From positions 1 to 40,008 of the forward strand of contig JBBSLN010000001.1 of NCBI GenBank assembly GCA_038255205.1: a stretch of DNA of 40,008 nucleotides. Reading direction: 5' to 3'. Shown here one piece after another: positions 8,133-40,008 of the stretch; position 1 is the stretch's first letter; each line of letters begins with the position of its first letter. Made by a program: the position numbers and the translations under genes. A model generated the notes under the pieces. It saw only the letters and a list, made by a program, of their open reading frames with translations, ran no database searches and had not been told where the DNA came from. The stretch is from Flavobacteriales bacterium (GTDB lineage Bacteria; Bacteroidota; Bacteroidia; Flavobacteriales; Flavobacteriaceae).

Positions 8133-8139
8133 TTTCACT

Positions 8140-10113: not shown

Positions 10114-10117
10114 ACAT

Positions 10118-10373: not shown

Positions 10374-10403
10374 AGTTTATCATATTGCAATATATTTTGT
10401 CAA
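10374..10403 (-). promoter_or_regulatory. Sigma70-type promoter of the recombinase leader
   Basis: Minus strand TTGACA (10398-10403), N18, TAAACT (10374-10379) with extended TGn. Confidence 0.55.
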
Positions 10404-10452
10404 GTGTCAAGATGTGGATATCCTTTGCGGTTACACTCTTTCACTTTTTGCA

Positions 10453-10626
10453 TTTTAAAGGAGATACAAAAATAAACTGTGATTTTGCGATTCCCAGGAT
10501 GAAGGCCTGGCGTTTCAAAAGATTTCCCGGCATATCCTCAATTTTCTGAATGGTATTCCGGTATTCCAGTTTCCTTTTGAACGTCGCAAATCCACAGTTT
10601 GTAAGTGGCTGGTATCACCTTTAAAA
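10453..10626. repeat. Large nested inverted repeat upstream of radC
   Basis: TTTTAAAGGAGATAC/GTATCACCTTTAAAA, AAACTGTGATTTTGCGA/TCGCAAATCCACAGTTT and TTCAAAAG/CTTTTGAA pairs. Confidence 0.75.
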
Positions 10627-10635
10627 TTTCAAAAG

Positions 10636-11094
10636 ATGCCAAAGACAAGAACACTCAACACCTTAAACGAAATCCGAGTAACGTACAGTAACAAAACTAA
10701 ATCCTGTGACAGAATTAAAATTGGAAGTTCCAGGGATGTGGCTTCCCTATTCCGTTCTGTATGGTCGGATAACATAGAATTCAGAGAAGAATTCAATATC
10801 CTGCTTTTGAATCGGGCCAATCATGTATTGGGATGGTATCAAGTATCTAAGGGCGGTTGTGCCGGAACAGTAGTTGACCCTAAGCTGATATTTGCAGTGG
10901 CCTTAAAATGTAATGCACAGGGTGTAATCTTATGTCACAATCACCCTTCAGGCAATTTAACCCCAAGTGAATCGGATTTGAAGCTGACAGAAAAACTCAA
11001 GAAAGGCGGAAACTTATTGGATATTGCAATACTTGATCACATTATTCTTAGTGTAGAGTCATACTATTCGTTTGCGGATGAAGCCAACCTCTAA
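10636..11094 (+). CDS. radC: RadC-like JAB-domain protein
   Basis: REEFNILLLNRANHVLG, GTVVDPK, ILCHNHPSGNLTPSESD, ILDHIIL. Confidence 0.95.
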   Translation: MPKTRTLNTLNEIRVTYSNKTKSCDRIKIGSSRDVASLFRSVWSDNIEFREEFNILLLNRANHVLGWYQVSKGGCAGTVVDPKLIFAVALKCNAQGVILCHNHPSGNLTPSESDLKLTEKLKKGGNLLDIAILDHIILSVESYYSFADEANL

Positions 11095-17155: not shown

Positions 17156-17649
17156 AGTTATTAGCAAGTATCCTTGTCTTTTGCTTTCTTTTTGCCTGTA
17201 CAAAAGTAAACAGGTCAAATACTATTGGACAAAATCGTGACCATTTAACTCAGAAATCAGGACAGTTCACTTTTTCAATTCACCCTATTAACTCAATTAA
17301 AGAAGATAAAACGAATCCATTATGCGGTATACAAATCTCATTCATGAATAATGATCAAAATTTTCAACATAAAATAAAGTATGAATCGTATATTCATTTT
17401 TTTTCATTTGAGTTTGGAAAACATATTAAATTAGTTTCTGATTCAGATACGATTGCATGTGAGCATTACAACGGAGAACGATATTATGATGTCTCTCCGA
17501 TTTCTCATGTATTTACATACTTCCCAATTTCCGATTTATCTCTTTACAAGAAAGAAAAGTTCAAACTAGTGCTATTGAAAAACGATTTTATAAATTCTGA
17601 GAATGTTGAATTTTCATTACATAATAAGTTTTTACGAGATTGCCTATGA
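17152..17649 (+). CDS. Lipoprotein
   Basis: MKLLASILVFCFLFA-C lipobox; ATGA overlaps at both ends. Confidence 0.75.
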   Translation: MKLLASILVFCFLFACTKVNRSNTIGQNRDHLTQKSGQFTFSIHPINSIKEDKTNPLCGIQISFMNNDQNFQHKIKYESYIHFFSFEFGKHIKLVSDSDTIACEHYNGERYYDVSPISHVFTYFPISDLSLYKKEKFKLVLLKNDFINSENVEFSLHNKFLRDCL

Positions 17650-24119: not shown

Positions 24120-24125
24120 TGCGAT

Positions 24126-24818
24126 ATGAAATCAATTGTATTGTTAATTTTTTTTTATTCTGTTGTTTGTCAGGGTCAGGATATCCGTAGTGATCTAAAA
24201 CAAATTAATAGAAACTATTACCAAAATCCTAATTGCCTATTTTATAAAGTGAAAATCTTATATTATGATGTATTGGATCCGTCTGATATCTATGACTCAC
24301 TTGCTGCTAAATATTATAAGCAGAATTTGAATATTTACATGGATTTAGACGAAATGGAAATGTTACTTAATGAAGAATATCACATTATTGCAGATAACAA
24401 ATATAAAAACCTATTGGTTTCAAAAAATGCAATTCAAAAACCTACAAACTATTCTTTAGATATTATTGATACTTTAATTTTTTCAAATAACTATTCTATT
24501 AAATTAGTTAATGTGGACAATTCCACAGTTGAAATACTATTAAGTTTTGAAAATAGCGTTGTTATGGATTCAGCAATTATTAAATATGATAAAAATAATT
24601 ACTTTATAAATGAATTAATTTTGTATTATAAACATTCTGGAATATTTCATCAAGAGGATTTTGAATTTTTCAAACCAGTCATTCATATCCATTTTATTGA
24701 GCAAAAGTTCATTACTTATCAACCTGAACTATTTCATATAGACAGATATGTATTAAAACAGGATTCTCAATATGTTGGAAAAGGCAAGTATAAGAACTAT
24801 ACTGTAAATCAAAATTGA
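24126..24818 (+). CDS. Exported accessory protein, possibly LolA-like fold
   Basis: 230 aa; signal peptide; helix then beta-meander pattern. The fold call is an impression only. Confidence 0.55.
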   Translation: MKSIVLLIFFYSVVCQGQDIRSDLKQINRNYYQNPNCLFYKVKILYYDVLDPSDIYDSLAAKYYKQNLNIYMDLDEMEMLLNEEYHIIADNKYKNLLVSKNAIQKPTNYSLDIIDTLIFSNNYSIKLVNVDNSTVEILLSFENSVVMDSAIIKYDKNNYFINELILYYKHSGIFHQEDFEFFKPVIHIHFIEQKFITYQPELFHIDRYVLKQDSQYVGKGKYKNYTVNQN

Positions 24819-24840: not shown

Positions 24841-27800
24841 ATGGTAAGAAACTCGATTTGTATATTGACCGTCCTTATTTTTCATGCGTGTTACCTTTTA
24901 GGGCAACATCAAAAATTTGGGTTTTCTCCAAGAGAGGAGCATTTTACAAGTAGGCTCATTGGTAAAGATCTAGTTCCAGGATCATTTTTAAAGGTTTCGG
25001 ATGATAAATTAGAATCTTCATATATAGAACAAACAGATAGTATTAAAACCTGTATTTCCAAAATAACATTTAAGTTCAATACAGAGGCAAATTTAATTTT
25101 GCCTAAAGAGTATTCAGCAAAAATTTTCCTCAAAATATCAGGATTTGATTATCAAAATAAGCAAATATTTAAAAATAAACCTGCAAGTTTATTACTATCC
25201 TCAGAGAAAAATACAATTTCTGACTATATTCACTTTGATAATGTTCATCGACTTGAAGTAATTGTAGATTTAATTCATTTCAAAATAAATAATCGCACAG
25301 AAATACCTGGTGATATCTTTACACTGGAAAGTGACATTAGTGTTTCTAGAATGTTAGTTTTTGATTGCAACGATGTCACCTCTTTATCTCATTCTTACAA
25401 TAACAATTACGACAGATTAACTATTTCATGGTCCCCAATTACCAATGCATCTGAGTATGATCTTGAATGGGTTTTTGTGGATTCTTTAAGCAAAATGGGG
25501 GGAAAAATTATTAGTAGTCAACCCTATCGATTTGATTCAGTATTTACCAATAACGCCACCCGGGTTTCGACACAACACAATTCTTTTGATATTTCATTAA
25601 TGTATCCCAAAGGATTGTTACTTTATCGTGTCCGAGGTGTCAATATACTTTCGAATTATCAAAGATTAACTACCGTTTGGACCGGATCAGGTGTTTCTAA
25701 TGTTTTTCATACTTTAGGTCATGAAGATTCCTTAAATTGGGAGAGTATTCAGTCATTTGCGGAAAATGGATTAAAACATGAATTAGTTACTTATTCTGAC
25801 GGCACTTTACGTGCTCGCCAAGATGTTTCTCGAAACAATACTTTAGATACTGTGTTTGCTTCTGAAAGTATTTATGATCATATAGGCCGTAAAGCAGTCC
25901 AATCACTACCTGGCTCAACATTTCAGGGAAAGATTGAATTTTTTGAAGGCCTTAATTTATCTACATCTGGGGATGCATATTCCTACCTGGATTTCGAAGC
26001 ACAAGGTAACTGCGGTGGATACCCCGTTTCCATGGATTCAACAAGTGGAAGTTCCCTTTACTACTCCCAAAGTAATCCTAACAATAGCCAACGCCCTGAT
26101 ATGTTCACTCCAAGTGCTGAAGGATACCCTTTTTCAGTTACTGAATTTACTCCGGATCTTACTGGAAGAATAAGTAGACAAGGGTCGGTTGGACAAGAAT
26201 TTCAAATAGGAAGTGGTCATGAACTCAAACACTTCTATTCACAGCCATCCCAAGAGGAACTGGATAGGTTATTTGGGAATGATGTGGGATTTAAAGACCA
26301 TTATTTTTTAGAAATGACCACTGATCCAAATGGTCAGACCACCTTAATATACACAGATTTGTCAGGAAATATTATTGCTACTGGTCTCACAGGACAAAGT
26401 CCAATAAATCTTTCTCCACTTGATTCAGTACCACCCCAAGATACAATCCGGCATGACCTTCTAAGCTGGATTAATAATTATAATGACAATGTTTCAATGC
26501 AATCAAATGCTAGCTTCCCTGCTAAATCTGATGGAAATTATAATTTTGTATATTCTCTTAATCCTGTTTCATTGATTTTGGAAAATTGTCAAAGCGATTC
26601 TATATGTTATGATTGTCTTTACGATATTGAAATATCAATAGGATCAATTTGTAATGATTCAGTACCTAATGGTCCATTCTTCAAAAAGACTTATAGCAAT
26701 TATCAATTACCTGCACCCTTTGATACTTTATGTATAAATGATCCGGCAGCTATAAGTGACAGTTTCAATCTTTATTTACCCCAAGGGCAGTATTCGGTAA
26801 ATAGAAAAGTAATTATGAGCGCAGAAGCCAAAGATTTTTATCTTGAGAAATTTCTCAGAGAAAATGTTTGCACAACGATTGAAACATTTTTACAAAATCA
26901 ACTTTCTTTGATTGATAGTGCAGGCTGTGATGTAGACTGTAATACTTGCATTGATAATCTGGGTTCTTCAGGAGATTTTTTGAATTCCTACTTTAATGCT
27001 TTATCATCAGGTGACAGCACTTATGTACCAACTGCATCAGATACTACATGCGGAATGGTATATTATCAGGAAGCTGTTGACGAATGCATGGAATTTTGTC
27101 TTTTGACAAGCTGTAGAACTCGGTATAAAACTATGTTAAAGGATGTTTCACCAAATGGGCAGTATGGTACCTATGAACTTGATTCTTCTAATTATTTAGT
27201 TGGTCCCCATAGTTTAATTTCCATTTTTTACCCCTTTGGAAACGGTGTTTATACCTACAATCATCCCTTTACATTAAACCAAATGGGGGGGTATTATAAA
27301 ACTAAGTGTGGAGACACATTAAAGGTCCTTATCGAAGACCAATTTTACAGACCTGATGAGCTAAGACCATCAGATTTTATCCAATATTTTGAACCTGAGT
27401 GGGCTGAAAATCTCGTTAAAATTCATCCGGAATATCCGTACTATCAATTTTGTATTGATAACCAGGAAAGTCATTTATTTGATTATGGTGTATATTCAAC
27501 TGAAAGCTTTCAGGAGGCCTTAGCTGATTCTCAATATATTGAATTTCTGTTTACTGAAAATGTTATTGACATAATAGATCCCTATTTTGTTAGTGGTTCA
27601 GGAATTGCACTACAAACCGCATTTTTAAACGCACTAAAAAATGTTTTCGCGCCTTACCCCTCTCCTTGTATTGGACTCTCGGCTATTGAATTGGCAACTT
27701 TGATTACAGTATTTAAGGATTATCCCCCACCGGTTAGAAATGCAATGGCGTGTAACCCAGCATTAATACCTGATCCTATCACTCTTTGTGAAGGTGAACA

Positions 27801-30800
27801 AAATCATGTATGGCGAATTATTAAAGCCTTATATTTTCTAAAAAAACAGTTAGCCTATGCCTTTATGGAGGATATTTATGCCCAAAACAATCCTCCTTAT
27901 GGTTGTGTCAACACTTGTATCGGAAGCATGAATCCCAGTTCGATGTTATTTGGTCATTACAATCCACCAGCAATTCATCCTCAATATTGTCCTCTGTTTT
28001 GTGTTAATCCTGCATTTAGTGAGGCAATGCCAAGATTTCTAAATTTTACAGAAGCATCACAATTCTATTGGTTGTCTTCAGATGATTCAGATGAATGGGT
28101 TCAAGAGGCAATGGATCAACACTGTGACACCACATGCATTAGTCAAAGAAATTATTGGCAAAGCAAAGTTACCGAGTATTGCGGCAATATACCTGCTACG
28201 CGAATGGATTCACTTTTAGACGCTTTCCAGGCCATTTGCATTAATGGTTGTGATACTCAACATCCTTTGGGCTCAAGCTCAATTAACCCTGGAAATGTTC
28301 CGTATCCAACATATTACAACTTTCAACAAGCAATGGAAAATATTTTGCTAGTTAGCCCCACGGATGCTTATTGTAATGCTTCTATCTTTTCATTGCCAAA
28401 GCCTTTTGAATTGCCAACCAGTCTCTTTTTTTCAAACTCTATTGTGTATGATTCTATTCCGGGTTGCACATGCGATATTCTAGATTCTTTATATGTAAAA
28501 TATGTTTCAGAATTAGGTTCAGGAACGCTTGCAGGATACTCAAACTATTTGGATTCAGTATACAATGTAAATTTAAATTCAACTCAACTAGAAGAGCTTT
28601 TTGATTTATGCGATGAGGGTGGTTGCGATTTTTTAACGAATGTCATAAGTCTCCCTGAAATGCTTAGTTGTCCCACCTGTCTAAAATGCGAAGCCGTTAC
28701 CTCAGAAGTGGAAACCTTTATTGAAAACTCCCCTAGTGTTCTATTATCTCAATTTTTTGAGGAACAATTAGGTCTCCATTTAAATGAAGTTTTTAATTTT
28801 AACCTCACTCCCGAAGTTTATTTTGCATTCCTTGATTCATGTGGAATGCTTGATACACTTACCTACGGAACAATTGACTGTGACAGTTTGTCCCAGCTAT
28901 ACAATTGGTATTTAGGCACAGGTGGAAGTAGCCTTGAAGATTCTCTAAACAGCAAACTTAATTTAACACTCTCACTTGATGAATATCAGTCTTGGATAGT
29001 TCGCTGTAATGTAGTTGAATATCGTGATTCTGTAGCTCAAAAAATTATTCCTAATATCACTAATCCTTCCAGTAACGTTTATAGAGGTTATTTTGATGCC
29101 TTTTGTCAGGGTCCATCCTGTGATGATTTGGAATTTTTTAGAGATAGTTTAATTACCTTACCAGATATACCACCATTAGATATTTGGTTCAACTTGCAAT
29201 TCGGTTACGATTGGACATTTGCCCAAATTTCTGATCTGTTGAATACATGTGAAATTCCAATTCCAATTTACAGCGATAGTATCAATTGTAGTAGAATAGA
29301 TAGTTCCTATTCGGATTTTCTCGCTCAGAATACCCTTGACCTAGCTAGTTTCATGAATACAGAAGTTGGAATTATTTTAACTTCTCAACAATGGCTTTCA
29401 TGGATTTCACAATGTGATATTTTAATAGAAGCGGATACCATCGATTGTGATACTCTTAGCACAGTTATAATTTATTATAATGGATTGAGTGAACCCAGAC
29501 CACCAATTTCTATGTATTTAAATAATCACTATAATTTAGATACAACTTCTAATTACTGGATTCAATTTATTGACAGTTGTGATTTAGAAGTCCAAGAAAA
29601 CAGCTGCGATTCTTTAGAATATTACTATAATGAAGTTTATAAAATTGACACCAATTTTGATGTACCATTTTTTGTATATATTCATGATAGCCTAGGCTAC
29701 AATCTTACTTGGGAAGAATGTGCTGACTGGTTTGCTTTATGTAATCTAAATATCTGTGACACAATTTCTTGTGATAGCTTGGAAGTGCTATTTACCAATT
29801 ATGGTAATTTATTAGGACCAAAACCTCCAGTTTCCTTGTGGTTAGAATCTATTTTAGGTTATCAATTATCCTCTCAGGAATTTGAAGATTGGTTCGAATC
29901 CTGTGAACTCGAAGCCCCCGCTTTTAATTGCAGGGAATTTTTCGATTTATATCATTATTCTTATTTGATGTTGCCTATACCCCGGCCAACTTATACCAGT
30001 TACTTTAATGCTTTATTGAATTTAAATTTTACTCAAGAACAATACCAAGCATGGTTTGACACATGTGAATATACCCCTGAGATTAATTGTTCACAATTAA
30101 TTAGCATTCTTACAACTTACAATGCTCTGGATGAGCCTAGGCCTCCTATTTGGATGTGGATAGAGTCCACTCTTCAATTGGGATTTACCGTTCAGGAATA
30201 CATTTCGTTTTTCGACAGTTGTGAATATGAAATTCCAAATATAGAATGTGATTCTATTAATTCACTAATTTCTGTCTACAATTCCATCAATCCAAGGCCC
30301 CCTGTAGCAATTTATTTTAACACATTATTAGGATTGGAACTTAGTCATCAGCAGTACATGGCATGGATAGATTCATGTGATATAACCGTTGATTTACCTC
30401 TTATTTGTGACTCCCTTAACGTTGCGTATTCTCACTTTACAACTTTGTTTGACACTTCTTCAATGTTAACTCCTCTGGATAGTTTCATAACCTGGTATGT
30501 AAGTGGCAGCGTTCCTATTACTGCAAATAATCCATATTCCTTTGCTGAACTAGTTTTATTAATAGATAGTTGTGAAATACAAATTACTGATTCACTTACT
30601 TGCTATGGACTTCAAAATGTAATTTCCGAATACACATCAATCGCTTCAGGAAGCATTACTTTAGAAGAATATCTGAATAGTATTTTTGATTTAAATGAAA
30701 CTATATTGTTTTATCAGTCCATTCTTGATACTTGTGAAATTTTTACATATACGGAACACTTTCTTTGTAATCAGCCAATCTTTCCAGGATTCTTAATTGA

Positions 30801-33800
30801 AGAGGATTGTTCTGATGATTTTTATGAAGTAGCACTTGCAAATTCAAACTTATTATTTGAATATGCAACAGACTCTGTTAAAGGAATTTTCCTTAAATCC
30901 TATGAACCGTATTGTCTTGCAAATGCGGTTGAGGAATTATATGTTGAGGAATTAATGCTAGATTACCATTTTACTTTATATTATTATGATCAAAGTAAAA
31001 ATCTAGTTAAAACAGTGCCCCCTCAAGGTGTCGCAATTGCCAATTCCACTGAATTAGCCCAAATCCAAAATTATAGAAACGGATTTGGAACGGCCTTTCA
31101 CAACGCCCACTCGTTTGAAACGGAATATTTTTATAATAGTCTTAATAGCATAACCGATCAAGTTACTCCTGATGCCGGTCAATCCAGATTCTGGTATGAT
31201 TTAGTAGGTAGATTAGTCGTTTCTCAAAATTCCGAACAGGCCCTTGCAGGACGTTTTGTAGGAAATTACACTATTTATGATGAATTAGGCAGAATAACTG
31301 AAGTAGGTGAAATTGAAAATGATTCTACGATGACGGACTTTATTTCCAGAAATCCAGTATTTCTTGAGAATTGGATCAATTTAGGAATAAGGTCTGAAGT
31401 AATACAAACCTACTATGATTCACCACCATCAACATTGTCTTTTTTTAGCCAAAATAATATGAGGAATCGAGTTGCGGCTACCACCTATGAAGATGCTTAT
31501 GATAATGATATTAATACTTATCAAACTGCCTCTCATTTCAATTATGATATTTTAGGTAATGTACATTCCTTACTTCAAGAAAATCGTTCACTTTCCTCAA
31601 TTGGTAAAGCGTTTAAAAGAGTTGATTATTTCTTTGATTTAGCAAGTGGCAAAATCAATAAATTATGTTATCAATGTGATTCCATTGATCAATTTATACA
31701 TGTATACGAATATGATGCCGATAACCGTTTAATAACCACATTGACAAGCACCGATTCTATCGGTTGGGAATATGATGCTGATTATATTTATTATGATCAT
31801 GGACCATTAGCTCGAACTATTCTTGGAAATGAACGTGTTCAAGGCATCGATTATGCTTATACGCTGCAAGGTTGGCAAAAAGGAGTAAATGCATCAGTTG
31901 CTTTGAATCACAAGCCTCTTACCTCTGATATGGGATTAGACGGTATTGGAGCCGGGGGAGTAAATCCCATAGCTCAAGATGCATTTGGCTACACAATTGG
32001 TTATCACGCTCAGGATTATGTTTCCATTGGCACCACCCAACCCAGATTTGAAGCTGAGTATGAAGGAACTTCTTTCGGCGATAGCTCTTATTTAGTATCC
32101 GCTACTTATAACCGTGGATTATATAATGGAAATATTAGGCATATAGTAGTATCAAACACTGCCCTTGACTCAGTAACAATGGGTTATAAGTATGAATATG
32201 ACCAGTTAAATCGGATCACAGGAATGAAAGCATTTACTGATATTTTAGCAGATTCTAACCTGTGGAGTAATGGAAGTGCCATCGACGATTTTAAAGAAGC
32301 CGTTCATTATGATTCCAATGGGAATATCCTAACTTATACACGTAACGGAACGCTAATGGGTGGAAACCCTTTAGCTATGGATTCTCTTTCTTATCATTAT
32401 ATTTCCGGGACAAATAAACTTTCACACGTTACAGATCGTGTTCCTAATTCAAATTACTCCAATGATATTGATGGTCAAAGAAATTTGAATTATCAATACA
32501 CAAAGGATGGAAATATGAAAGTAGATTCAAGTGAAGGACTTTGGGTATATTGGAACACGTATGGGAAAATTGATAGTTTAGTAAATAGAAATAGTAAAAT
32601 AGCATTAAAATTCGTTTATGATCCTTCCAATAATCGAATAGAAAAACGATATTATACATCACCTGGATTTAGTTATAACCTAACTCTAACAACTTATTAT
32701 ATTCGAGATTCACAAGGCAACATACTTTCAATTTATGAACTTGACAAATTAAATAAACTCAATTGGGCTGAAGTACCACTTTATGGCTCTTCCCGTGTCG
32801 GTGTATTTAATCCTGATACAATAATTTGGGAGCCAGGTTGGTCCCATTTGAATAAGCCTATTTCCAACATAATGTCAGGAAATAAAGTTTATGAATTAAC
32901 AAATCACCTAGGAAACGTATTGGCCACAATTAGCGACCAAAAACTCCCAGTGGATACAAATGGTGGAGGAACCGACTTCTATTCTCCGATATTTGTAAGT
33001 GCACAGGATTATTATCCCGGCGGGTCTCCGATGCCTGGGCGAAATTTTAACGCAAATCAATACAGGTACGGGTATAACAAAGGCTCTGAGAAAGATGATG
33101 AAATTAGCGGAGCAGGAAACCACTTTACAACTTTTTACAGAGAAGGAGATACAAGGCTAATGACTTGGTGGGGGACAGACCCGATGTCTGACTTCCTTTC
33201 TTTTCAAAGTCCATATTCATATATGAACGGCAACCCAATAAATGGAACAGATCCCAATGGCGGATTTTTTCAAGAATTGAAAAATTGGGCACTTGGCAGA
33301 GGTTGGAAATCAAATGAAGCATACAAGTTTGGCAAAACTCACTCTGATTGGAATTATGAATGGCAAGGAAATAAATTAACTGGTCATGGTACTTATAGTC
33401 ATATTGATAAAAGTACAGAAGGCGGTAATATGTCTCAAGGGATAAACTTGGGAACTTTTGAATTTGCCCAATTTGATGCGGTACAGGATATACCTCGTTT
33501 TAGTTTTTTCAAGTTTGAAGGAGAATTAATTATTGGCACAGACTTTTTTGATCAAAAATCTTCATTTACACCAGGTCCTTTTGTTGTAGCTTCTCGACCA
33601 ACAAACGAGTACAAGAAAATAAATTTTGATAAAGAACGAGACCACTTCCATCATGAAATTGGACACATAGAACAGTTTAAAGATTTAGGACCTTTATACT
33701 ATCCGATTATCGCTATTCCAAGTGCTTTGGAATATAACATTAGGAAAGACCCAACAAAACATGATAATTTTTATACGGAAAAGTGGGCAAATACGCTGTC

Positions 33801-33891
33801 AATACATAGGTTTGGGCAGTTTAGTAAGCCGTCAGATTACCCGAGTTATAAAAGAGTTTATTTCCCATTCTATAGAGCAATCCAAAAATGA
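24841..33891 (+). CDS. Giant Rhs polymorphic toxin (3016 aa) with HExxH C-terminal domain
   Basis: Signal peptide; YD repeats; core YELTNHLGNV...QDYYPGG...SPYSYMNGNPINGTDPNG; 209-aa tip after DPNG (33262-33891) with HEIGH at 33652-33666. Confidence 0.93.
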   Translation: MVRNSICILTVLIFHACYLLGQHQKFGFSPREEHFTSRLIGKDLVPGSFLKVSDDKLESSYIEQTDSIKTCISKITFKFNTEANLILPKEYSAKIFLKISGFDYQNKQIFKNKPASLLLSSEKNTISDYIHFDNVHRLEVIVDLIHFKINNRTEIPGDIFTLESDISVSRMLVFDCNDVTSLSHSYNNNYDRLTISWSPITNASEYDLEWVFVDSLSKMGGKIISSQPYRFDSVFTNNATRVSTQHNSFDISLMYPKGLLLYRVRGVNILSNYQRLTTVWTGSGVSNVFHTLGHEDSLNWESIQSFAENGLKHELVTYSDGTLRARQDVSRNNTLDTVFASESIYDHIGRKAVQSLPGSTFQGKIEFFEGLNLSTSGDAYSYLDFEAQGNCGGYPVSMDSTSGSSLYYSQSNPNNSQRPDMFTPSAEGYPFSVTEFTPDLTGRISRQGSVGQEFQIGSGHELKHFYSQPSQEELDRLFGNDVGFKDHYFLEMTTDPNGQTTLIYTDLSGNIIATGLTGQSPINLSPLDSVPPQDTIRHDLLSWINNYNDNVSMQSNASFPAKSDGNYNFVYSLNPVSLILENCQSDSICYDCLYDIEISIGSICNDSVPNGPFFKKTYSNYQLPAPFDTLCINDPAAISDSFNLYLPQGQYSVNRKVIMSAEAKDFYLEKFLRENVCTTIETFLQNQLSLIDSAGCDVDCNTCIDNLGSSGDFLNSYFNALSSGDSTYVPTASDTTCGMVYYQEAVDECMEFCLLTSCRTRYKTMLKDVSPNGQYGTYELDSSNYLVGPHSLISIFYPFGNGVYTYNHPFTLNQMGGYYKTKCGDTLKVLIEDQFYRPDELRPSDFIQYFEPEWAENLVKIHPEYPYYQFCIDNQESHLFDYGVYSTESFQEALADSQYIEFLFTENVIDIIDPYFVSGSGIALQTAFLNALKNVFAPYPSPCIGLSAIELATLITVFKDYPPPVRNAMACNPALIPDPITLCEGEQNHVWRIIKALYFLKKQLAYAFMEDIYAQNNPPYGCVNTCIGSMNPSSMLFGHYNPPAIHPQYCPLFCVNPAFSEAMPRFLNFTEASQFYWLSSDDSDEWVQEAMDQHCDTTCISQRNYWQSKVTEYCGNIPATRMDSLLDAFQAICINGCDTQHPLGSSSINPGNVPYPTYYNFQQAMENILLVSPTDAYCNASIFSLPKPFELPTSLFFSNSIVYDSIPGCTCDILDSLYVKYVSELGSGTLAGYSNYLDSVYNVNLNSTQLEELFDLCDEGGCDFLTNVISLPEMLSCPTCLKCEAVTSEVETFIENSPSVLLSQFFEEQLGLHLNEVFNFNLTPEVYFAFLDSCGMLDTLTYGTIDCDSLSQLYNWYLGTGGSSLEDSLNSKLNLTLSLDEYQSWIVRCNVVEYRDSVAQKIIPNITNPSSNVYRGYFDAFCQGPSCDDLEFFRDSLITLPDIPPLDIWFNLQFGYDWTFAQISDLLNTCEIPIPIYSDSINCSRIDSSYSDFLAQNTLDLASFMNTEVGIILTSQQWLSWISQCDILIEADTIDCDTLSTVIIYYNGLSEPRPPISMYLNNHYNLDTTSNYWIQFIDSCDLEVQENSCDSLEYYYNEVYKIDTNFDVPFFVYIHDSLGYNLTWEECADWFALCNLNICDTISCDSLEVLFTNYGNLLGPKPPVSLWLESILGYQLSSQEFEDWFESCELEAPAFNCREFFDLYHYSYLMLPIPRPTYTSYFNALLNLNFTQEQYQAWFDTCEYTPEINCSQLISILTTYNALDEPRPPIWMWIESTLQLGFTVQEYISFFDSCEYEIPNIECDSINSLISVYNSINPRPPVAIYFNTLLGLELSHQQYMAWIDSCDITVDLPLICDSLNVAYSHFTTLFDTSSMLTPLDSFITWYVSGSVPITANNPYSFAELVLLIDSCEIQITDSLTCYGLQNVISEYTSIASGSITLEEYLNSIFDLNETILFYQSILDTCEIFTYTEHFLCNQPIFPGFLIEEDCSDDFYEVALANSNLLFEYATDSVKGIFLKSYEPYCLANAVEELYVEELMLDYHFTLYYYDQSKNLVKTVPPQGVAIANSTELAQIQNYRNGFGTAFHNAHSFETEYFYNSLNSITDQVTPDAGQSRFWYDLVGRLVVSQNSEQALAGRFVGNYTIYDELGRITEVGEIENDSTMTDFISRNPVFLENWINLGIRSEVIQTYYDSPPSTLSFFSQNNMRNRVAATTYEDAYDNDINTYQTASHFNYDILGNVHSLLQENRSLSSIGKAFKRVDYFFDLASGKINKLCYQCDSIDQFIHVYEYDADNRLITTLTSTDSIGWEYDADYIYYDHGPLARTILGNERVQGIDYAYTLQGWQKGVNASVALNHKPLTSDMGLDGIGAGGVNPIAQDAFGYTIGYHAQDYVSIGTTQPRFEAEYEGTSFGDSSYLVSATYNRGLYNGNIRHIVVSNTALDSVTMGYKYEYDQLNRITGMKAFTDILADSNLWSNGSAIDDFKEAVHYDSNGNILTYTRNGTLMGGNPLAMDSLSYHYISGTNKLSHVTDRVPNSNYSNDIDGQRNLNYQYTKDGNMKVDSSEGLWVYWNTYGKIDSLVNRNSKIALKFVYDPSNNRIEKRYYTSPGFSYNLTLTTYYIRDSQGNILSIYELDKLNKLNWAEVPLYGSSRVGVFNPDTIIWEPGWSHLNKPISNIMSGNKVYELTNHLGNVLATISDQKLPVDTNGGGTDFYSPIFVSAQDYYPGGSPMPGRNFNANQYRYGYNKGSEKDDEISGAGNHFTTFYREGDTRLMTWWGTDPMSDFLSFQSPYSYMNGNPINGTDPNGGFFQELKNWALGRGWKSNEAYKFGKTHSDWNYEWQGNKLTGHGTYSHIDKSTEGGNMSQGINLGTFEFAQFDAVQDIPRFSFFKFEGELIIGTDFFDQKSSFTPGPFVVASRPTNEYKKINFDKERDHFHHEIGHIEQFKDLGPLYYPIIAIPSALEYNIRKDPTKHDNFYTEKWANTLSIHRFGQFSKPSDYPSYKRVYFPFYRAIQK
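28471..30735 (+). repeat. About 13 degenerate Cys-bracketed 43-56-aa protein repeats within the Rhs
   Basis: Consensus C-D-S-L-x6-Y...(PRPP)...LN-x2-LGL-x-LT-x2-QY-x2-W-x-DSC, read from the translation. Confidence 0.85.
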
Positions 33892-34316
33892 TAGTTATGG
33901 GAAAACATTTTTTGCTTATTGTACTTTGGTCGTTCCCATTTTTGGAAGGATGTGTTGTTGATAAATTCGACTCTCGTTTAAAATTTGTCAACAACACCAA
34001 TTCTCCTGTATTTATTCATGGCAATTTTTCTTTACGGAATGATACTGTTATTCATTGTGATGGATGTTACTCAAATATAAGAGAGGGCGACTATTACAAC
34101 CCTAAGGACACAGCAGAAATAGGCTTACACGGAAAACTCTACGATGAATATTTAGAACAGTCCCCTGAAGAAGTATATAGGATTTTTGTTTTTGCTTCAG
34201 ATACTATAAAAAAGTACGGTTGGGAAAAGGCAAAGAACAATTATATGATTTTGAAACGCTACGATGTTACCCTTAAATACATCAAAGAAAATAACTGGAT
34301 TATAACCTTCCCTTGA
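33888..34316 (+). CDS. Putative cognate immunity lipoprotein
   Basis: ATGA overlap with the Rhs stop; lipobox PFLEG-C; 142 aa. Confidence 0.8.
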   Translation: MIVMGKHFLLIVLWSFPFLEGCVVDKFDSRLKFVNNTNSPVFIHGNFSLRNDTVIHCDGCYSNIREGDYYNPKDTAEIGLHGKLYDEYLEQSPEEVYRIFVFASDTIKKYGWEKAKNNYMILKRYDVTLKYIKENNWIITFP

Positions 34317-34327
34317 TTAACCTAGCT

Positions 34328-34352
34328 CAAAGCCCCATAATCGGGGCTTTTG
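34328..34352. terminator. Bidirectional intrinsic terminator
   Basis: CAAAGCCCC-ataatc-GGGGCTTTTG between the convergent immunity and XRE genes. Confidence 0.8.
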
Positions 34353-34354
34353 TT

Positions 34355-34678
34355 TTATAGAGCTTTTAACTTCGCAGCTTTAATAAGCCCATCAAGCGTA
34401 TAGAAAATGTTTTGTTTGTCGTTATCGGGCAGCTTCTCAATATCTTGTAAGCGTTTGAGTGTTTTTTTATCAAGCACTTTAAGTTCCCCACCTACCAAAT
34501 AATCTAAACTTACTTCCAACGCATCCGCCAATTTTTTAGCGGTCTCAATGCTGGGCTTCATCTCATCACGCTCATACTTGCCAACAATATCACCATTTAC
34601 GCCAGAGAGCTTGCCAAGCTCCGCTTGTGACATCTCTTTTTGCTTACGCACCGAAGTTATTTTTTGTCCGAAAGTCAT
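34355..34678 (-). CDS. XRE-family HTH transcriptional regulator
   Basis: FGQKITSVRKQKEMSQAELG...VGKYERDEMKPSIETAKKLADALEVSLDYLV. Confidence 0.95.
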   Translation of the reverse strand: MTFGQKITSVRKQKEMSQAELGKLSGVNGDIVGKYERDEMKPSIETAKKLADALEVSLDYLVGGELKVLDKKTLKRLQDIEKLPDNDKQNIFYTLDGLIKAAKLKAL

Positions 34679-34719
34679 CAGTATTGTTCAGTTTTTAGTG
34701 GTAAAAAAGTTAATCAGGG

Positions 34720-34802
34720 CAAATTTAAGTGAATTAACATTCATAAACAATTTGATTAGTTCTTGTTTTGTTCAGAAGGATACTATACTTTTGTGAAGGA
34801 TT
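34720..34802. promoter_or_regulatory. Divergent Bacteroidota promoters between XRE and ATPase
   Basis: TAAATTTG on minus (34720-34727) and TACTTTTG on plus (34786-34793), each with TTG about 20 nt upstream; GAAGGAT repeated at 34775 and 34795 may be an operator. Confidence 0.55.
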
Positions 34803-34827
34803 ATTCAGTAAAAACTATTTTTAAACA

Positions 34828-36495
34828 ATGGAAACAAGCCAACTCATTACCACCAATGCCGAAGAAATGTATTACGAAAACGCACTACTCAAACAAACTG
34901 TACTGGGCGGAATAAAATTAGAAGGCTTGGACAGAATGCGAGTAACCTTAAAAGTAGAGTTGAAAGATGCACCACGCCCACCCGTAAGGCACAACTTAGA
35001 TTTATACAACGATAACCAATTAGAAAAATTTATCCGCAAAATAGCAGAACGCTTAGAAATAGGCACGGCAGTAATAGCAGCCAGTTTAAGCGAACTAACC
35101 AACGAGTTAGAAAAATACCGATTAGTAAAAATAAAAGAACAACAAGCCGAAATACCACAAACAAAGCCATTAACAGAAACAGAAAAACAAACAGCCAAAG
35201 AAAATTTACAAGTAGAAAACCTATTGCAACAAACCTTAGAAGATTTACAACACACAGGCATACAGGGCGAAGCAGAGAACGCAGTGATATTATTAATGGC
35301 AATGAGCAGCCGAAAATTACACGACCCTTTGAGTGTGATATGCTTGGCAAAAAGCGGAACAGGCAAAAGTTATTTAATGGAACGAGTGGCCATGTGCATA
35401 CCCGAAGATGATAAAAGAGAGCACACCCAATTTAGCGGCAATAGCTTCTATTACTTTAAACGAGAAGAAATAAGGGGCAAAGTTTTTTTGATAGAAGATT
35501 TACACGGAGCAATGAATGTACTGTTCCCAATAGCAGAACTACAAACAAAAAAACGAATTAGTAAAACAGTAACCATAAAAGATAAAAGCGGACAACTAAG
35601 AACCATCACGTTAATAGTTGAAGGGCCTGTAAGCGTTATAGCCTGCACCACACGAGAGAAAATATATGAAGATAACTCCAACCGTTCAATACTGATTTAT
35701 TTAGATGGAAGCAAAGAACAGGACGAAAAAATAATGCACTACCAAAAACAAAACCGGGCAGGATTAATAGACCATTTTTCAGAAAAGCAAATGCAAAAAA
35801 AATTAATGCAGATGCAACAAGTATTAGAACCGATACGAGTAATAAATCCTTTTGCACCACTGATAAATTTACCCAAAGAGATTTTTAAACCACGCAGGAC
35901 ATTACCGATTTTACTCAGCTTTATTGAAGCCACTACATTTTATTGCCAGTACCAAAGAGAAACAAAAGCAGACGAGCAAACCGGAGAAGTTTATATAGAA
36001 ACACATCCGCAGGATATTGAATGGGCTTGCAAACTCTTGAAAGATGTGCTGTTTAGAAAGGGCGATGAACTAAGCGGCATCATCAGAGAATTTTATCAAT
36101 GGTTAAAAAAATGGCAAGAGCAGAAAAAGCAAAAACAGTTTTATGCCAATGATATAAGGAAACAGAACGGTATTAACCCGAGAACATTAAACAGGTATTT
36201 ACAGGAGCTAACAGATTACGGACTGTTACAAATAGCAGGAGGCAACAAGCACCGCACTGGGTACGCTTACAAAATCATAGCAGGAAAAGACTTTGAGCAA
36301 ATGCAAAGCAGCATTGAAGCGCAAATAAAACAAGTGCTTGAAAATGTTTGGAAAGCCTACGAACAAAGAAAAGCAGAACCGGAGAAACCAAAATCCACAA
36401 AATCAGGAAAGTTGAGCGAAGCGAAATCCCGCAGCATTGCGGGAAAAACAAGTAAGCCAGTTAGCCAAGAGTTGGACAAAGTAGTAAATGACTAA
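34828..36495 (+). CDS. P-loop ATPase/helicase-like protein with C-terminal HTH (primase-helicase family without primase domain)
   Basis: Walker A AKSGTGKS, Walker B VFLIED, EDNSNRS, PRRT; C-terminal PRTLNRYLQELTDYGLL; no CHC2 finger or Toprim motif seen. Confidence 0.75.
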   Translation: METSQLITTNAEEMYYENALLKQTVLGGIKLEGLDRMRVTLKVELKDAPRPPVRHNLDLYNDNQLEKFIRKIAERLEIGTAVIAASLSELTNELEKYRLVKIKEQQAEIPQTKPLTETEKQTAKENLQVENLLQQTLEDLQHTGIQGEAENAVILLMAMSSRKLHDPLSVICLAKSGTGKSYLMERVAMCIPEDDKREHTQFSGNSFYYFKREEIRGKVFLIEDLHGAMNVLFPIAELQTKKRISKTVTIKDKSGQLRTITLIVEGPVSVIACTTREKIYEDNSNRSILIYLDGSKEQDEKIMHYQKQNRAGLIDHFSEKQMQKKLMQMQQVLEPIRVINPFAPLINLPKEIFKPRRTLPILLSFIEATTFYCQYQRETKADEQTGEVYIETHPQDIEWACKLLKDVLFRKGDELSGIIREFYQWLKKWQEQKKQKQFYANDIRKQNGINPRTLNRYLQELTDYGLLQIAGGNKHRTGYAYKIIAGKDFEQMQSSIEAQIKQVLENVWKAYEQRKAEPEKPKSTKSGKLSEAKSRSIAGKTSKPVSQELDKVVND

Positions 36496-36559
36496 CTGAA
36501 AGGCTTATCAGTCAAAGGCTTTAGGGCAGTTAGCCAATCGTTTTAAAAAATGCAAGCAC

Positions 36560-37573
36560 ATGAAAAATTTATCAATCAAAAGTCAACCCTTCCAGTATCT
36601 TGAAAAATCCTTCAGGGAATGGTTAGACGTATTGGGCTATGCACAAACAACGGTTTACCAAATGCCCAACAGCCTGAGAGAATTTTTTTACTACTTAGAA
36701 CAAAACCACATTACACAGCTTCCGCAAATAGAAATAAAACACTTTAGAGAATATTACGCACAACTGAAAAACCGGAGCAACACAAGGCGGGGCGGTGGAC
36801 TCTCCAACAGTTATTTAAACAAGCATTTACAGGCATTATACAAGTTCACAGAGTATTTAAGACAAAGCGGGAGAATGGTTTTACCATCGCTGAATATTGA
36901 ATGGGAAGCAAACGATACGGACGAAATTATTTTTTTAACACAGGATGAAATCAAAGAACTGTTTGCAGCAACTTACGGCTACAATGAAGGCACAGCATTA
37001 GAACCGCTCAACAGCAGGGACAGGGCTATACTCAGTATATTTTACGGATGTGGATTAAGAAGAAACGAGGGTTACCATTTAGATTTATCGGACATCAATT
37101 TTGACAGGCAAATCATCCACGTAAGAATGGGAAAGGCTTATAAAGAAAGATTTGTACCGTTTAATAAATCATTAGCAAAACATTTACAGGATTATGTTTA
37201 TGATGCAAGACCGCTAATAGTGAATGACAAAAGAGAAGAAGCATTTTTTATAAGTCAGCGGGGAATAAGAATGAACGGCATGAGCATGAGTTTACGCCTG
37301 AAATTATTACAGCAAAGAACCGATAACATAGAACTGCAAAATAAAAATGTAAGGCTGCATGTATTGCGCCATTCCATCGCAACGCACTTTTTACAAAACG
37401 GAATGAGCCTTGAAAAAATCGCAAGGTTCTTAGGTCACGCATCCTTAGAAAGCACACAGGTTTACACGCATTTAGTGGAAGCAGATAAAAATGGAACAGA
37501 GCCACTAAAACCACAGCCATACAACAACATCCCGAAATATGAATACTTTAAACTGCATAAGGACGAACTATGA
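36560..37573 (+). CDS. XerC/D-like tyrosine recombinase
   Basis: YGCGLRRNE, GKAYKER, LHVLRHSIATH and LGHASLESTQVYTH give a full catalytic set. Confidence 0.95.
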   Translation: MKNLSIKSQPFQYLEKSFREWLDVLGYAQTTVYQMPNSLREFFYYLEQNHITQLPQIEIKHFREYYAQLKNRSNTRRGGGLSNSYLNKHLQALYKFTEYLRQSGRMVLPSLNIEWEANDTDEIIFLTQDEIKELFAATYGYNEGTALEPLNSRDRAILSIFYGCGLRRNEGYHLDLSDINFDRQIIHVRMGKAYKERFVPFNKSLAKHLQDYVYDARPLIVNDKREEAFFISQRGIRMNGMSMSLRLKLLQQRTDNIELQNKNVRLHVLRHSIATHFLQNGMSLEKIARFLGHASLESTQVYTHLVEADKNGTEPLKPQPYNNIPKYEYFKLHKDEL

Positions 37574-38592
37574 GCGGAAAAATAAAACTCGGAAAAACAA
37601 GAGACAGCAGAACCCGGAGAAAGGCGAAAACACAGGATGCAGAAGCTGTTTTACAATTACAGCAGGAGTTAAAAGAACAGACAGAATTTACCAACTATCT
37701 TTTAATGAAAGGCTTTAGCACAGCCACAATAAAACGATTTATAAAAGACACGGATTATTTTTTAAAGTGGAGTGAAAAAGAAAATGTACCCATCGAAAAT
37801 GCAAGCTATGCAGATGTATTACACTTCATACAAGGCAAGCGGAATAAGGTAAAGCAAAGAACCATCAGCATACAGATAAACAGTTTAAAACACTACTTTA
37901 ATTTTTTAGCCACCACCGGACAAGCAGGAGAAAACCCAACCACACAAATACAAATCAGGGGAATAAAGAGAAAGACCCTTTACGATATACTCAAGAAAAG
38001 CGAATTAGAAAGCCTGTACAACAACTTTGAATTGCCGAAAGAAGATAATCCTAATAAAAATCAGAACTGGTTTAAAACGGCTGTATTGGCTTCAAAGCGG
38101 AATAAAGTGATATTGGGTTTAATGGTGTACCAGGGCTTAACAGTTTATGAACTCGGAACACTTACCGAAAAAGACATGAAGCTGAGAGAAGGAAAAGTTT
38201 TTGTAGCAGGAAGCAGAAGAAGCGAAGAAAGAACATTGACTTTAGAAGCTCACCAAATATTAGATATTATGGAATATCAGTTGAAAACACGCAATGAAAT
38301 TTTACAGCAAACCAAAAAGCAGAGTGATAATTTTTTTGTCAGCACCGGAGTAAGCGAACATTTTAACAACACTATGCAAAAGCTGATGCAGAAGCTGCAC
38401 AAACAGAATAGCAAAGTAACAACAGCAAAACAAATCCGTGCAAGCGTAATTACTCATTGGCTGAAACTCTATAATCTTAGACAAGTTCAATACATGGCCG
38501 GACATCGTTTTGTAAGTTCAACAGAGGCTTATTTAGTGAATGATTTAGACGACCTCTCAGAAGACGTATCAAAGTTCCATCCGATAAATTAA
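37570..38592 (+). CDS. Second tyrosine recombinase-like protein with non-canonical active site
   Basis: YQGLTVYEL (Arg replaced by Thr), KQIRASVIT (HxxR reads QIR), AGHRFVSSTEAY; ATGA overlap with the first recombinase. Confidence 0.88.
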   Translation: MSGKIKLGKTRDSRTRRKAKTQDAEAVLQLQQELKEQTEFTNYLLMKGFSTATIKRFIKDTDYFLKWSEKENVPIENASYADVLHFIQGKRNKVKQRTISIQINSLKHYFNFLATTGQAGENPTTQIQIRGIKRKTLYDILKKSELESLYNNFELPKEDNPNKNQNWFKTAVLASKRNKVILGLMVYQGLTVYELGTLTEKDMKLREGKVFVAGSRRSEERTLTLEAHQILDIMEYQLKTRNEILQQTKKQSDNFFVSTGVSEHFNNTMQKLMQKLHKQNSKVTTAKQIRASVITHWLKLYNLRQVQYMAGHRFVSSTEAYLVNDLDDLSEDVSKFHPIN

Positions 38593-38610
38593 AAATCCAC
38601 CCACAGCCCC

Positions 38611-39797
38611 AGCAGCAAAAATCCCCGCCCTTTACCCTTGCAGACACACGAGCCAAACGCAAAGGATGCAGGGCTTCGTTGGTCTTTTTGCTGCTTCCCC
38701 TCGCTTGCCCTTCTGTTGTTTTTACTGTCATACTTTTTGTACCAACCGCACTTTTTGCACATTGCTTTTTGCTTTAGAATGAATTATTTTTTTTAGCGGA
38801 TAAAAGCAAAAATCAAAGAGCAAAAGCCGACACACAAAACAAAAAGATACGCCAGTAAAAACAACCCAAAGCTAAATAACATAATGTGATCTTATAGTAC
38901 ACGGGCTTTTTTAGCGGTGTGCTGCGCACGATTTTAATGCCCTTAGTCCTATAAGCACATTATGTTAAATAGCCGCACAGCCTACACACCCCGCCCACTC
39001 TGACGCTTCGTGCACAAGCCAATAAAAAAAGTCCTTGATTAATTTATTTTTAGCGGTAAGGTCTTTTTTTTATTCGCTTGCACACCCCACAAAATAAGCG
39101 GTTCGGCAAAAGTTGTAAAGAAAAGTTACAACACTTGCCGGAATTTATTTTATACACCTCCCTCCGGTCAAGCAAGTGTAAAGCCTCCGGCAGGTAGGTG
39201 CTTCGCATTTTTTTATTGGGGCAATCTTCCAATGCCCCAAACCCCTTTGGATGCTCATTTTTATAAACAGATAAAACGCACGAATCCACGCACAAGCCAT
39301 TTTTATCTATTTATAAAAATCGAGCTATGTTTTTTACCGCTCAATTAAGCGAACAGAAATAAACGTTTTTAAAGCTGATGTAAAAGGAAGCGTTGGCAAT
39401 GTGTGTAAGGCTTTTGCATCATCTTTAAAAATGAAACAACCGAAGGGCGTTAGTCTTTTATCATCAAATAAAATCAAAGGGCTGCTGATGTTCTGTTTTA
39501 GCGTGTCGGTAAGCATTGCGTATAATGTGCCGCTGGCTTGGCGTTAGTTGTTCTTCACAATTACGCTAAGCCGAAATTATACGCTGTGCTTTTTTGTGTG
39601 TCGGGAAAAACAGAACATTAGCAGACCTTTACCGCTTCCCTTCTTCAAATGAAAATCAGTTGAAAAAAGACAGATAAACGAGTATAAAAACACATCAAAA
39701 TGTTATCTTTGAAGCGTTAAGAAATTTTTTTGTACACAAGAACCGCCACATATAGCCCTGACGTAGTTTTTTCCTTTGAAACACAGGAAAAAAACGT
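38611..39797. repeat. Serial inverted repeats in the noncoding arm
   Basis: Pairs at 38611-38621/38685-38695 and 38715-38740/38839-38865; further stems at about 39130-39179, 39216-39240, 39258-39319, 39371-39426, 39518-39583 and 39761-39797. Confidence 0.75.
38874..38970. other. Two inverted dif-like (Xer) sites
   Basis: Plus TAGTCCTATAA-gcaca-TTATGTTAAAT (38944-38970); minus GTGTACTATAA-gatcaca-TTATGTTATTT (38874-38902). The first XerD arm equals the E. coli dif arm. Confidence 0.7.
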
Positions 39798-39831
39798 GAG
39801 CGTATCTAAAAATACCAAAGACTCCTCTACA

Positions 39832-40008
39832 TTCGGGGCGACAATGCCAGGACGGAATTACAACTCTACAGAATACAATTACGGTTTCAATGGCCAAATG
39901 AAAACCGATGAAATATCAGGAGCAGGAAACCATTATACAGCGGAGTTTTGGGAATATGATCCAAGATTAGGAAGAAGGTGGAACCTTGATCCTGTTGATA
40001 AGCCATGG
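39832..40008 (+). CDS. Orphan/displaced Rhs core module (partial, runs off the window)
   Basis: FGATMPGRNYNSTEYNYGFNGQMKTDEISGAGNHYTAEFWEYDPRLGRRWNLDPVDKPW; frame open from 39721, ATG at 39844. Not in the ORF track. Confidence 0.92.

Follow-up and report, generated by a model that had tools for sequence, protein, structure and literature searches.

Homologous recombination has so far been the explanation both for the acquisition of new tips by Rhs and CdiA toxins and for the accumulation of old tips behind their genes, and reviews mention nearby integrases only in passing; the locus described here raises the question of whether a dedicated element can bring in the tip. It lies at the end of the window, by which we mean the whole stretch of DNA analysed, i.e. 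the entire 40,008-nt contig C1 (JBBSLN010000001.1, positions 1–40,008) of assembly GCA_038255205.1 from a Flavobacteriales bacterium, whose genome is fragmented into 667 contigs. There, a 3016-aa Rhs open reading frame (ORF; 24841–33891) contains one junction, attL, and a second Rhs core begins behind another, attR. An initial annotation had proposed that the DNA between the two is a site-specific element which uses the Rhs core as its target, installs its own toxin tip on the host protein and pushes the earlier tip downstream. We now put at about 0.85 the probability that positions 33019–39831 are a member of a widespread and likely integrative family which carries a toxin tip and a likely immunity gene and is seated in frame at a fixed codon boundary, so that its own tip is fused to the host protein and the earlier tip is left behind. 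Because relatives sit in the same way in many bacteria, Escherichia coli included, units of this kind are likely to be mobile. The features on which this reading depends are as follows (a slash within a motif marks the cut).

24841–33018, + strand: Rhs delivery gene, host part (aa 1–2726 of 3016), ending D-Y-Y-P, the left arm of attL; DUF6443 and weak TIGR03696 matches
33007–33033, + strand: attL, crossover between 33018 and 33019; read from the sequence, with the position set by loci L055, L062 and L063, and L112 and L113
33019–39831, + strand: the element, 6,813 bp; delimited by relatives' junctions and by similarity to the L055 element
39820–39846, + strand: attR, crossover between 39831 and 39832; from the sequence and relatives, and the end of a run X1 contig at 39831
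39832–40008, + strand: displaced Rhs core (FGATMPGR...), truncated by the contig end

The two junctions and the position of the cut

On re-reading the sequence, both junctions had exactly the letters and coordinates first reported. At attL (33007–33033) the Rhs ORF reads GAT TAT TAT CCC/GGC GGG TCT CCG ATG (DYYP/GGSPMPGR), and at attR (39820–39846) the sequence reads GAC TCC TCT ACA/TTC GGG GCG ACA ATG (DSST/FGATMPGR), with no Rhs similarity found upstream of the attR core. Since the contig stops at 40008, the displaced tip is visible over 177 bp only. The two Rhs cores share 54.5 % protein identity over 55 aa, and blastn at E 1e-3 found no match between them; the −1 and +1 bases differ between attL and attR, and there is thus no identical core repeat. 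No second module was found in the window's own genome.

The closest relative, locus L055, has an ATPase 85 % identical to that of the window but sits outside Rhs genes. It splits a trypsin-like peptidase of the type IX secretion system (T9SS) at DYLP/SG, so that an Rhs tip is attached to the 5′ half, which ends DYLP, and the 3′ half resumes with SG directly behind the right end. When the halves are set against intact homologues, they join between residues 617 and 618 (P0126) or 624 and 625 (P0128) with no residue lost or repeated; precise ends with an intact empty site are thus seen here, as they are in a distant E. coli pair described below. The L055 attL is GATTATTTACCT/GGAGGG (TTACCT/GGAGGG) and its attR is GACTATCATACA/TCTGGT (CATACA/TCTGGT). 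These partners differ on both sides of the cut and have in common only GAYTAT at −12 to −7, C at −2 and GG at +4/+5, and when the attL and attR of the window are added the common bases shrink to GAYT at −12, C at −2 and GG at +4/+5. No Rhs DNA was found to the left of the L055 junction. Since the split loses no residue and the partners share no homology, homologous recombination is excluded for L055. The window's element and the 7,453-bp L055 element are 76 % identical in DNA over 3.76 kb and 80 % identical at the right end. As a result of the off-target insertion, L055 has a chimeric ORF (158–3019 and 9390–10157) in which peptidase, Rhs core and toxin tip are in frame, with the T9SS tail left behind the element.

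The crossover had initially been considered uncertain by a few bases, as both junctions contain CGGG. That sequence is indeed shared, but relatives remove the uncertainty: the junctions of L055, L062 and L063, and L112 and L113 separate tip from right end and so place the window's cut between 33018 and 33019 and between 39831 and 39832, outside CGGG. A cut inside CGGG was ruled out because +1 to +3 travel with the tip (L055, and L062 and L063), as was a cut in the GAYTAY stretch for the window's lineage, where −6 to −1 travel with the right end (L063 and L112). The same tip follows differing left sides in L063, L112, G581c and G016 (in the first three it stands once behind the host and once behind a right end), and the same right end precedes differing tips in L062 and L063, in L112 and L113, and in G016. 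The right-end sequence TCTACA at −6 to −1 is common to the window, L002, L091 and L078, which are elements at different sites, and the corresponding bases differ from the host side in L063 and L112; the GG of DYYPGG is the mark of the tip carried by the window's lineage. Wherever the partners differ (the window, L055, L063, L112, G195, G581c, G523C43 and L110), attL is of host type up to −1 and attR is of element type. The reciprocal product, element on the left and host on the right, was seen in none, an absence that selection on Rhs could produce.

A fixed codon boundary in each lineage

The initial annotation had named starts scattered over different codons as evidence that would count against it. 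Immediately behind a module stand 82 cores; after removal of one duplicate, 53 distinct cores can be aligned across the FG column of the core profile and 28 begin at later motifs. Fifty of these 81 distinct right ends lie at YYP/FG without Rhs similarity upstream, and share an A-tract at −25 to −20 followed by an imitation of D/N-Y-Y-P codons. Three others with Rhs-like DNA upstream of YYP/FG (G025, L123 and L125) were set aside, as their real junctions lie further upstream (DH/LG, before YQY). Other lineages target YR/YGF, DH/LG, positions before GMYDYG, WLSIDP, YNYKY or YQY, or non-Rhs genes, and on a tree of the first recombinase, Int1, target class changes 10 times as compared with 32.5 times with shuffled labels (77 labelled rows); the window falls in a clade of 19 rows, all 19 of which are YYP/FG. 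Starts are therefore not scattered within lineages, and the other motifs follow the Int1 tree. Judged by these alignments, each lineage uses one fixed in-frame codon boundary, that of the window being YYP/FG. The proposal that the Rhs core serves as the target needs amending accordingly: Rhs cores are the commonest site, but recognition depends on a short DNA motif and not on Rhs itself.

Size and organization of the family

A search for homologues of the window ATPase returned 4,651 at E 1e-20 among 7,999 candidates scored. The gene was found in 8 of 61 relatives, in 16 of 401 genomes of the phylum and in 37 of 401 of the order (own genome included), and 138 ATPase loci from genomes together with 78 metagenome loci made up the set compared here. 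A one-protein scan of genome contigs gave two loci only, and 11 genomes of the same genus (57–99 % complete) held no match to the module. The order of tip, immunity gene, XRE repressor, ATPase, Int1, Int2, optional cargo and right end is almost constant, with the positions of the two recombinases exchanged in G655. Of 136 right ends, 36 were truncated by the end of a contig or locus; among the 100 assessable, 79 are followed by an Rhs core within 4.5 kb, 14 come from four loci that were assigned to non-Rhs toxin lineages by inspection and seven lie elsewhere, so that the modules are not found mostly away from Rhs genes, as would have spoken against the original proposal. The 177 tips form 146 clusters. 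Since dozens of unrelated loci show this gene order and junction, the window's arrangement is not due to chance.

Tandem occurrence, which the initial annotation had suggested looking for, was found as arrays of nine and eleven modules in two complete genomes. In G016, nine modules stand behind a 1,827-aa non-Rhs toxin gene, and all nine right ends and the host gene join their tips at an identical TTGGCT; in G851, eleven modules of three types stand behind one Rhs gene, all at YP/FG. In both, each tip type stays paired with its ATPase type and the repeat units begin at the tip. The units are direct tandem repeats, with no inversion of resident segments of the shufflon type. A second array in G851 (C1:2089361–2116600) joins about ten codons upstream of YQYKD, giving two target specificities on one chromosome, and lineages with different targets are stacked together in L060, L123 and L127. 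In L061 (1917–2495), a module's left junction lies at NDYYP/GG inside what is apparently another tip, downstream of an earlier core.

The cargo between Int2 and the right end varies freely. This slot after the last recombinase often holds small two-gene toxin–antitoxin-like pairs or single hypothetical genes (G016, G851, G784, L109, L183 and L184), and is empty in the window. On contig C16 of G051 (L032 and L033), four orphan cores each stand behind a right-end motif without repressor, ATPase or recombinases; these tip cassettes are possible non-autonomous derivatives.

Proteobacterial relatives and an E. coli filled/empty pair

The ATPase also matches 36 plasmid records at 25–32 %. Behind CdiA/TpsA genes, plasmids of Enterobacter and Pseudomonas aeruginosa carry tandem copies of the module, in which the ATPase is fused to a primase and there is a single recombinase; Enterobacter right ends join their tips at /VENN, and no empty relative was found for the P. 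aeruginosa plasmid. A Caballeronia record and an Aureispira record have Rhs junctions. Primase–recombinase DNA was matched in 60 of 5,426 complete E. coli genomes, and in the four examined it lies at the rhs locus beside yddH (three) or in the cdi locus (one). In the three rhs loci, T/DPIG is the junction of every one of the six module right ends, whereas module-free orphans start at scattered places. The commensal E. coli strain MP1 carries two modules at the yddH-adjacent rhs locus.

Comparison of E. coli JNE120442 with strains 21F61 and JNEC-KY177 revealed a 7,928-bp insert in JNE120442 that starts at the tip. The tip displaced in JNE120442 is fused to the full Rhs gene in both other strains, and the right flank matches for 10,912 bp from the junction (0 and 1 mismatches to the two empty strains). 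The crossover lies within two bases of the junction and not inside the 71 %-identical core. Since these relatives are distant (26–28 % identity in the ATPase and 28–30 % between their recombinase and Int1), the pair supports the behaviour of the family and not the activity of the window's copy. The claim that the element pushes the earlier tip downstream thus gains an example in which the predicted empty site exists with the displaced tip fused to Rhs; for the window itself it has to be modified, in that the downstream tip is probably the head of an older module and not the host's first tip.

That modification comes from sequencing run X1, a possible source run whose evidence is not independent of the window; the data of runs X1–X4 are contigs, with X2 and X3 contributing small shares. 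One X1 contig stops precisely at 39831; a second has a different 21-base end joined to the tip at 39832 and continues into another ATPase copy, which is why the downstream tip is probably an older module's head. Together the contigs suggest branching at the predicted base and a longer array; none of the X1 contigs listed bridges 39831 and 39832.

The E. coli modules carry symE beside the repressor. In the C10 cdi locus of E. coli (L190), the start GTT/GTTGAGAATAA at VENN is also found in many CdiA orphans that have no module, one of which retains a degraded right-end leader; such orphans may be remnants of these elements. A circular Leptospira record of 13,148 bp (L182; NZ_CP091935.1) contains an ATPase and an integrase with many frameshifts and no Rhs core by profile, and could be an excised relative.

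Parts of the window's element

The initial annotation listed a tip, an immunity gene, an XRE gene, an ATPase and two tyrosine recombinases between the junctions, and the ORF list and family searches agree with it. The parts are as follows.

33019–33891, + strand: element-borne remainder of the Rhs core (starts GGSPMPGR) and toxin tip; HExxH motif, HEIGH, at 33652–33666
33888–34316, + strand: likely immunity gene, 142 aa, lipoprotein-type signal ending LEG-C; overlaps the toxin stop
34329–34350, + strand: terminator-like hairpin between the convergent immunity and XRE genes; weak, one found against 0.4 expected
34355–34678, − strand: XRE repressor, RstR family, divergent from the ATPase; NF041951 phage_RstR, 95 bits (cut-off 80)
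34828–36495, + strand: AAA+ P-loop ATPase with C-terminal winged-helix-like region, a predicted MCM-like helicase; PF27228 MTBMA_p00010_2nd; stand-alone
36560–37573, + strand: Int1, tyrosine recombinase with the full R167-K192-H267-R270-H293-Y302 set (alignment of 80 sequences)
37570–38592, + strand: Int2, tyrosine-recombinase fold without the first Arg (T191) and the HxxR His (K287); R290, H312 and Y321 kept
38874–38970, no strand: hairpin made by two dif-like sites in inverted orientation, with spacers of 7 and 5 bp; fold z −2.99, equalled by none of 200 shuffles
39511–39591, no strand: second strong hairpin in the right end; z −5.91
39721–39831, + strand: reading frame of the displaced tip open for 37 codons, with a TTG at 39730 but no ATG; the homologous stretch is open in L002, L055 and L091

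From its HExxH motif the tip is predicted to be zinc metalloprotease-like; it has no Pfam or PHROG family, and its neighbours in the Atlas are mostly without names, with a weak Peptidase_M91 lead at 0.78. Its cluster also holds a 3016-aa member on a 266-kb contig. Since the 323-aa protein P0241 carries a tip 89 % identical to that of the window behind another leader (junction NYTT/FG), tips of this type occur both mounted and displaced. The 142-aa lipoprotein-like ORF has no family match and, from its position, is the likely immunity gene.

In Int1, R167, K192, H267, R270 and H293 are invariant in 80 of 80 sequences and Y302 is present in 78, the other two being gaps. Int2 has the first arginine in one of 74 sequences and the HxxR histidine in four, while the later residues are kept (R in 67, H in 66 and Y in 73 of 74); lacking these two residues, it is likely to be a partner rather than a full catalyst, and this likely role would fit the single recombinase of the proteobacterial relatives. 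The model of the ATPase (pLDDT 69) gave Foldseek matches of which all those listed are chains of MCM or of the Cdc45–MCM–GINS (CMG) complex (best E 1.9e-6, TM-score about 0.35), and we predict an MCM-like helicase; 14 of 87 ATPase relatives are long fusions behind a CHC2/Toprim primase.

Inverted dif-like pairs are present in 41 of 73 right regions and absent from 32, with spacers of mostly 6+6 or 7+5 bp (sum mostly 12). Such sites number 128 in 145 kb of right regions as compared with seven in 367 kb of module coding DNA, and with a stricter pattern 31 of 34 genome-wide matches lay inside modules (three genomes), with none in two other genomes. In the window they lie about 860 bp inside the right end, away from the junction. 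Host XerCD may act on a replicating circle. The pairs, often two per element and situated between cargo and right end, resemble the hairpin attP of Xer-exploiting elements.

At the right ends, at least 30 codons are open in frame with the displaced tip in 25 of 50 cases, against 3 of 100 in the other frames. Many of these in-frame leaders start MGCxKLxY, and those of G016, G443 and Enterobacter are signal-peptide-like. As about half of the right ends thereby equip the tip they displace with a new start or signal peptide, such tips may continue to be expressed; passages of a study of Salmonella describe internal expression of orphan Rhs toxins (PMC7043789). No ORF for packaging or interference lies between the window junctions, and no Rfam match was found in 33000–40008.

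Upstream of the Rhs gene the window encodes a 2,159-aa protein without Pfam or NCBIfam match and a LolA3-family gene (17640–24818). The Rhs protein itself starts with a signal-peptide-like stretch, and type VI genes were not seen among the window ORFs listed. Further upstream of the toxin locus (318–11094) is a patch of ORFs that by eye look mobile-element-like (integrase-, nuclease- and RadC-like).

Proposed mechanism and alternative explanations

In our working model, the element would excise as a circle in which its right end is joined to the start of its tip, and the MCM-like ATPase, with a primase where one is fused, would copy this circle, subject to regulation by the RstR-like repressor. 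With Int2 assisting as a DNA-binding partner, Int1 would then recombine the circle with a short target of approximately GAYTAY-N4-C-N/N3-GG, and integration would require no identity at the bases flanking the cut. Since the host-left/element-right product was the only one seen, integration would most likely involve a single strand exchange that replication resolves. As the new left junction would again be a target, later arrivals would stack newest first. Transfer between cells would require a helper phage, a conjugative element or transformation.

The alternative that survives best keeps the same element and target and changes the chemistry. Either both strands are exchanged and a heteroduplex is tolerated, as with the integrases of Tn916 and CTnDOT, or host XerCD shares the work at the dif-like hairpin and Int1 and Int2 only excise. 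The mismatches beside the cut suit heteroduplex-tolerant integrases, the Int2 tyrosine is almost always conserved and the dif-like pairs, frequent in right regions, are largely module-confined in three genomes. Against this, attL is of host type to −1 and attR of element type in all eight informative cases without a reciprocal product, and the dif-like sites lie well inside the right end and are missing from 32 of 73 right regions. We give this alternative an appreciable probability, though one well below that of the main reading.

Displacement by homologous recombination, in which tip circles arise through RecA acting between copies of the core, with the recombinase module carried along as a passenger between tips, is the model set out in passages of PMC2935791. 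The same loci do contain module-free orphans with long, variable core pieces, and RecA could have made the identical tandem copies. Under that model core lengths should vary and identity should be high, whereas starts are fixed per lineage and the window's cores fail to match in blastn; moreover, to the left of the L055 junction there is no Rhs DNA, and in E. coli the crossover is at most two bases from the junction. For module-linked tips we consider homologous recombination largely refuted and, as an account of the window, highly improbable. Least probable of all is that the recombinase module alone inserts between tips, the upstream tip having arrived separately: freely variable cargo and the G051 cassettes with only a right-end remnant would suit such an offset unit, but the L055 Rhs tip is fused to the peptidase at the left junction with the peptidase's own end behind the right end, and the E. 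coli insert and the G016 and G851 repeat units all begin at the tip.

A number of points weigh against our preferred reading, i.e. an integrative element that brings its own tip. No transfer genes were found, a scan of viral contigs gave no locus and none of 50,697 phage records matched the ATPase. No excised circle or empty-site joint of the window's element occurs in the X1–X4 contigs, where absence is uninformative. The tally of right ends partly retains overlapping loci, and loci and genomes are non-independent samples; the Int1 tree is a quick version in which near-copies inflate clustering. Terminal repeats in L059, L113 and L121 are possibly collapsed tandem repeats. The E. coli filled/empty pair is from a distant one-recombinase lineage and is ambiguous as to direction (gain or loss). 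In G140, G784 and G851, host and right end are the same from −9 or −12 to +5, and with such identity across the junction the cut cannot be placed; tandem identical copies in such lineages may have originated by homologous duplication. Finally, both the recombinase activity of Int1 and the toxin activity of the tip are predictions from sequence.

Beyond the window, we think it probable, with less assurance than for the window itself, that these loci represent an undescribed cross-phylum class of self-replicating elements which splice a tip and immunity gene, in frame and without homology, onto polymorphic-toxin genes recognized by lineage (Rhs, CdiA and other Bacteroidota toxins), which are a main engine of tip exchange and orphan arrays, and whose right-end leader keeps displaced tips alive. 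A selfish element of this kind would pay its host with a new weapon while the immunity gene protects the element, and, if the elements are mobile as we infer, the warhead fired at rivals would change with each insertion. The recombinase family would be one whose target specificity has shifted among conserved protein motifs and which joins coding sequences in frame without overlap identity. With a named machine, exact att junctions and natural filled and empty E. coli strains, the question of tip exchange becomes directly testable.

Comparison with known systems

No description of such an element was found in the full-text literature, subscription journals and supplements being outside the scope of the search. 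The literature searched holds only remarks on integrases near Rhs or contact-dependent inhibition (CDI) orphans (PMC5727410, PMC7662968), and the passages of PMC13183296, PMC3482391, PMC7204230, PMC5524665, PMC11278526 and PMC11606950 contain no such description; Additional File 1 of PMC3482391 may list such neighbourhoods. The nearest published phenomenon is displacement of Rhs C-termini and CDI orphans, where the passages concerned describe a new tip coming in, the old tip shunted downstream and tip arrays, and propose a circular intermediate (PMC2935791; PMC3150448; PMC7662968); integrase-like sequences are noted in CDI orphan regions, with homologous recombination still favoured (PMC7662968). 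In Snodgrassella and Gilliamella of the bee gut, integrase genes adjoining Rhs were suggested to aid toxin capture, and no element, att site, junction or mechanism is defined in the passages of that work (PMC5727410). Passages elsewhere mention XerC/D genes beside polyimmunity loci (PMC3482391), and, for arrays of the type VI secretion system, report no evidence of an integrase and draw a comparison with integrons (PMC5361080).

The window's family shares with Rhs/CDI displacement the insertion of a new tip, the old tip downstream, the arrays and the proposed circle, but differs in that each tip is accompanied by recombinase and replication genes of its own and is joined at a fixed position without homology. 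The variable core fragments and high donor–recipient core identity of orphan modules were not found in it. Its proposed chemistry belongs to a known class, and its strategy is undescribed within the literature searched.

Integrons use a tyrosine recombinase and a fixed intI–attI platform that takes up attC cassettes without a recombinase gene, with the newest unit first, older ones displaced and little homology at the cut; reviews have reportedly likened VENN codons to integron attI. The family resembles integrons in its tyrosine recombinase, newest-first stacking and little homology at the cut, but has no fixed intI–attI platform, carries recombinases in every unit and has its target inside a coding sequence, and Int1 scores 101.6 against the integron integrase model TIGR02249, well under its cut-off of 265. 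Integrative mobile elements exploiting Xer (IMEX), such as CTXphi, have no integrase of their own, are inserted at chromosomal dif by host XerCD and use a rolling-circle Rep. The window's element is like CTXphi in its RstR-family repressor divergent from a replication gene, its foldable inverted dif-like sites and its family's tandem arrays, and unlike it in having its own recombinases in place of dif integration by host XerCD, ends in toxin genes, an MCM-like ATPase and no phage genes.

Satellites such as phage-inducible chromosomal islands (PICI) and P4-like elements carry an int–repressor–primase/helicase kit and need a helper; some small integrative elements have a kit of this type too. 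Size, gene kit (integrase, divergent repressor and helicase, the primase domain being absent in the window's lineage) and likely need for a helper are similar, but in the window no packaging or interference genes are seen and attP carries a variable toxin–immunity pair, from which the target gene receives its new 3′ end. Two-recombinase transposons of the Tn554 type carry at their right end 6–7 bases of the previous target, whereas here the right-end bases −6 to −1 are shared by elements at different sites. Shufflons (Rci/pilV) employ a tyrosine recombinase to invert resident segments, and ordinary integrative elements restore an equivalent 3′ end; the window's element would resemble both in that the C-terminal end of a host protein is determined, in frame, by a tyrosine recombinase, and would differ from both in that integration installs a foreign functional domain.

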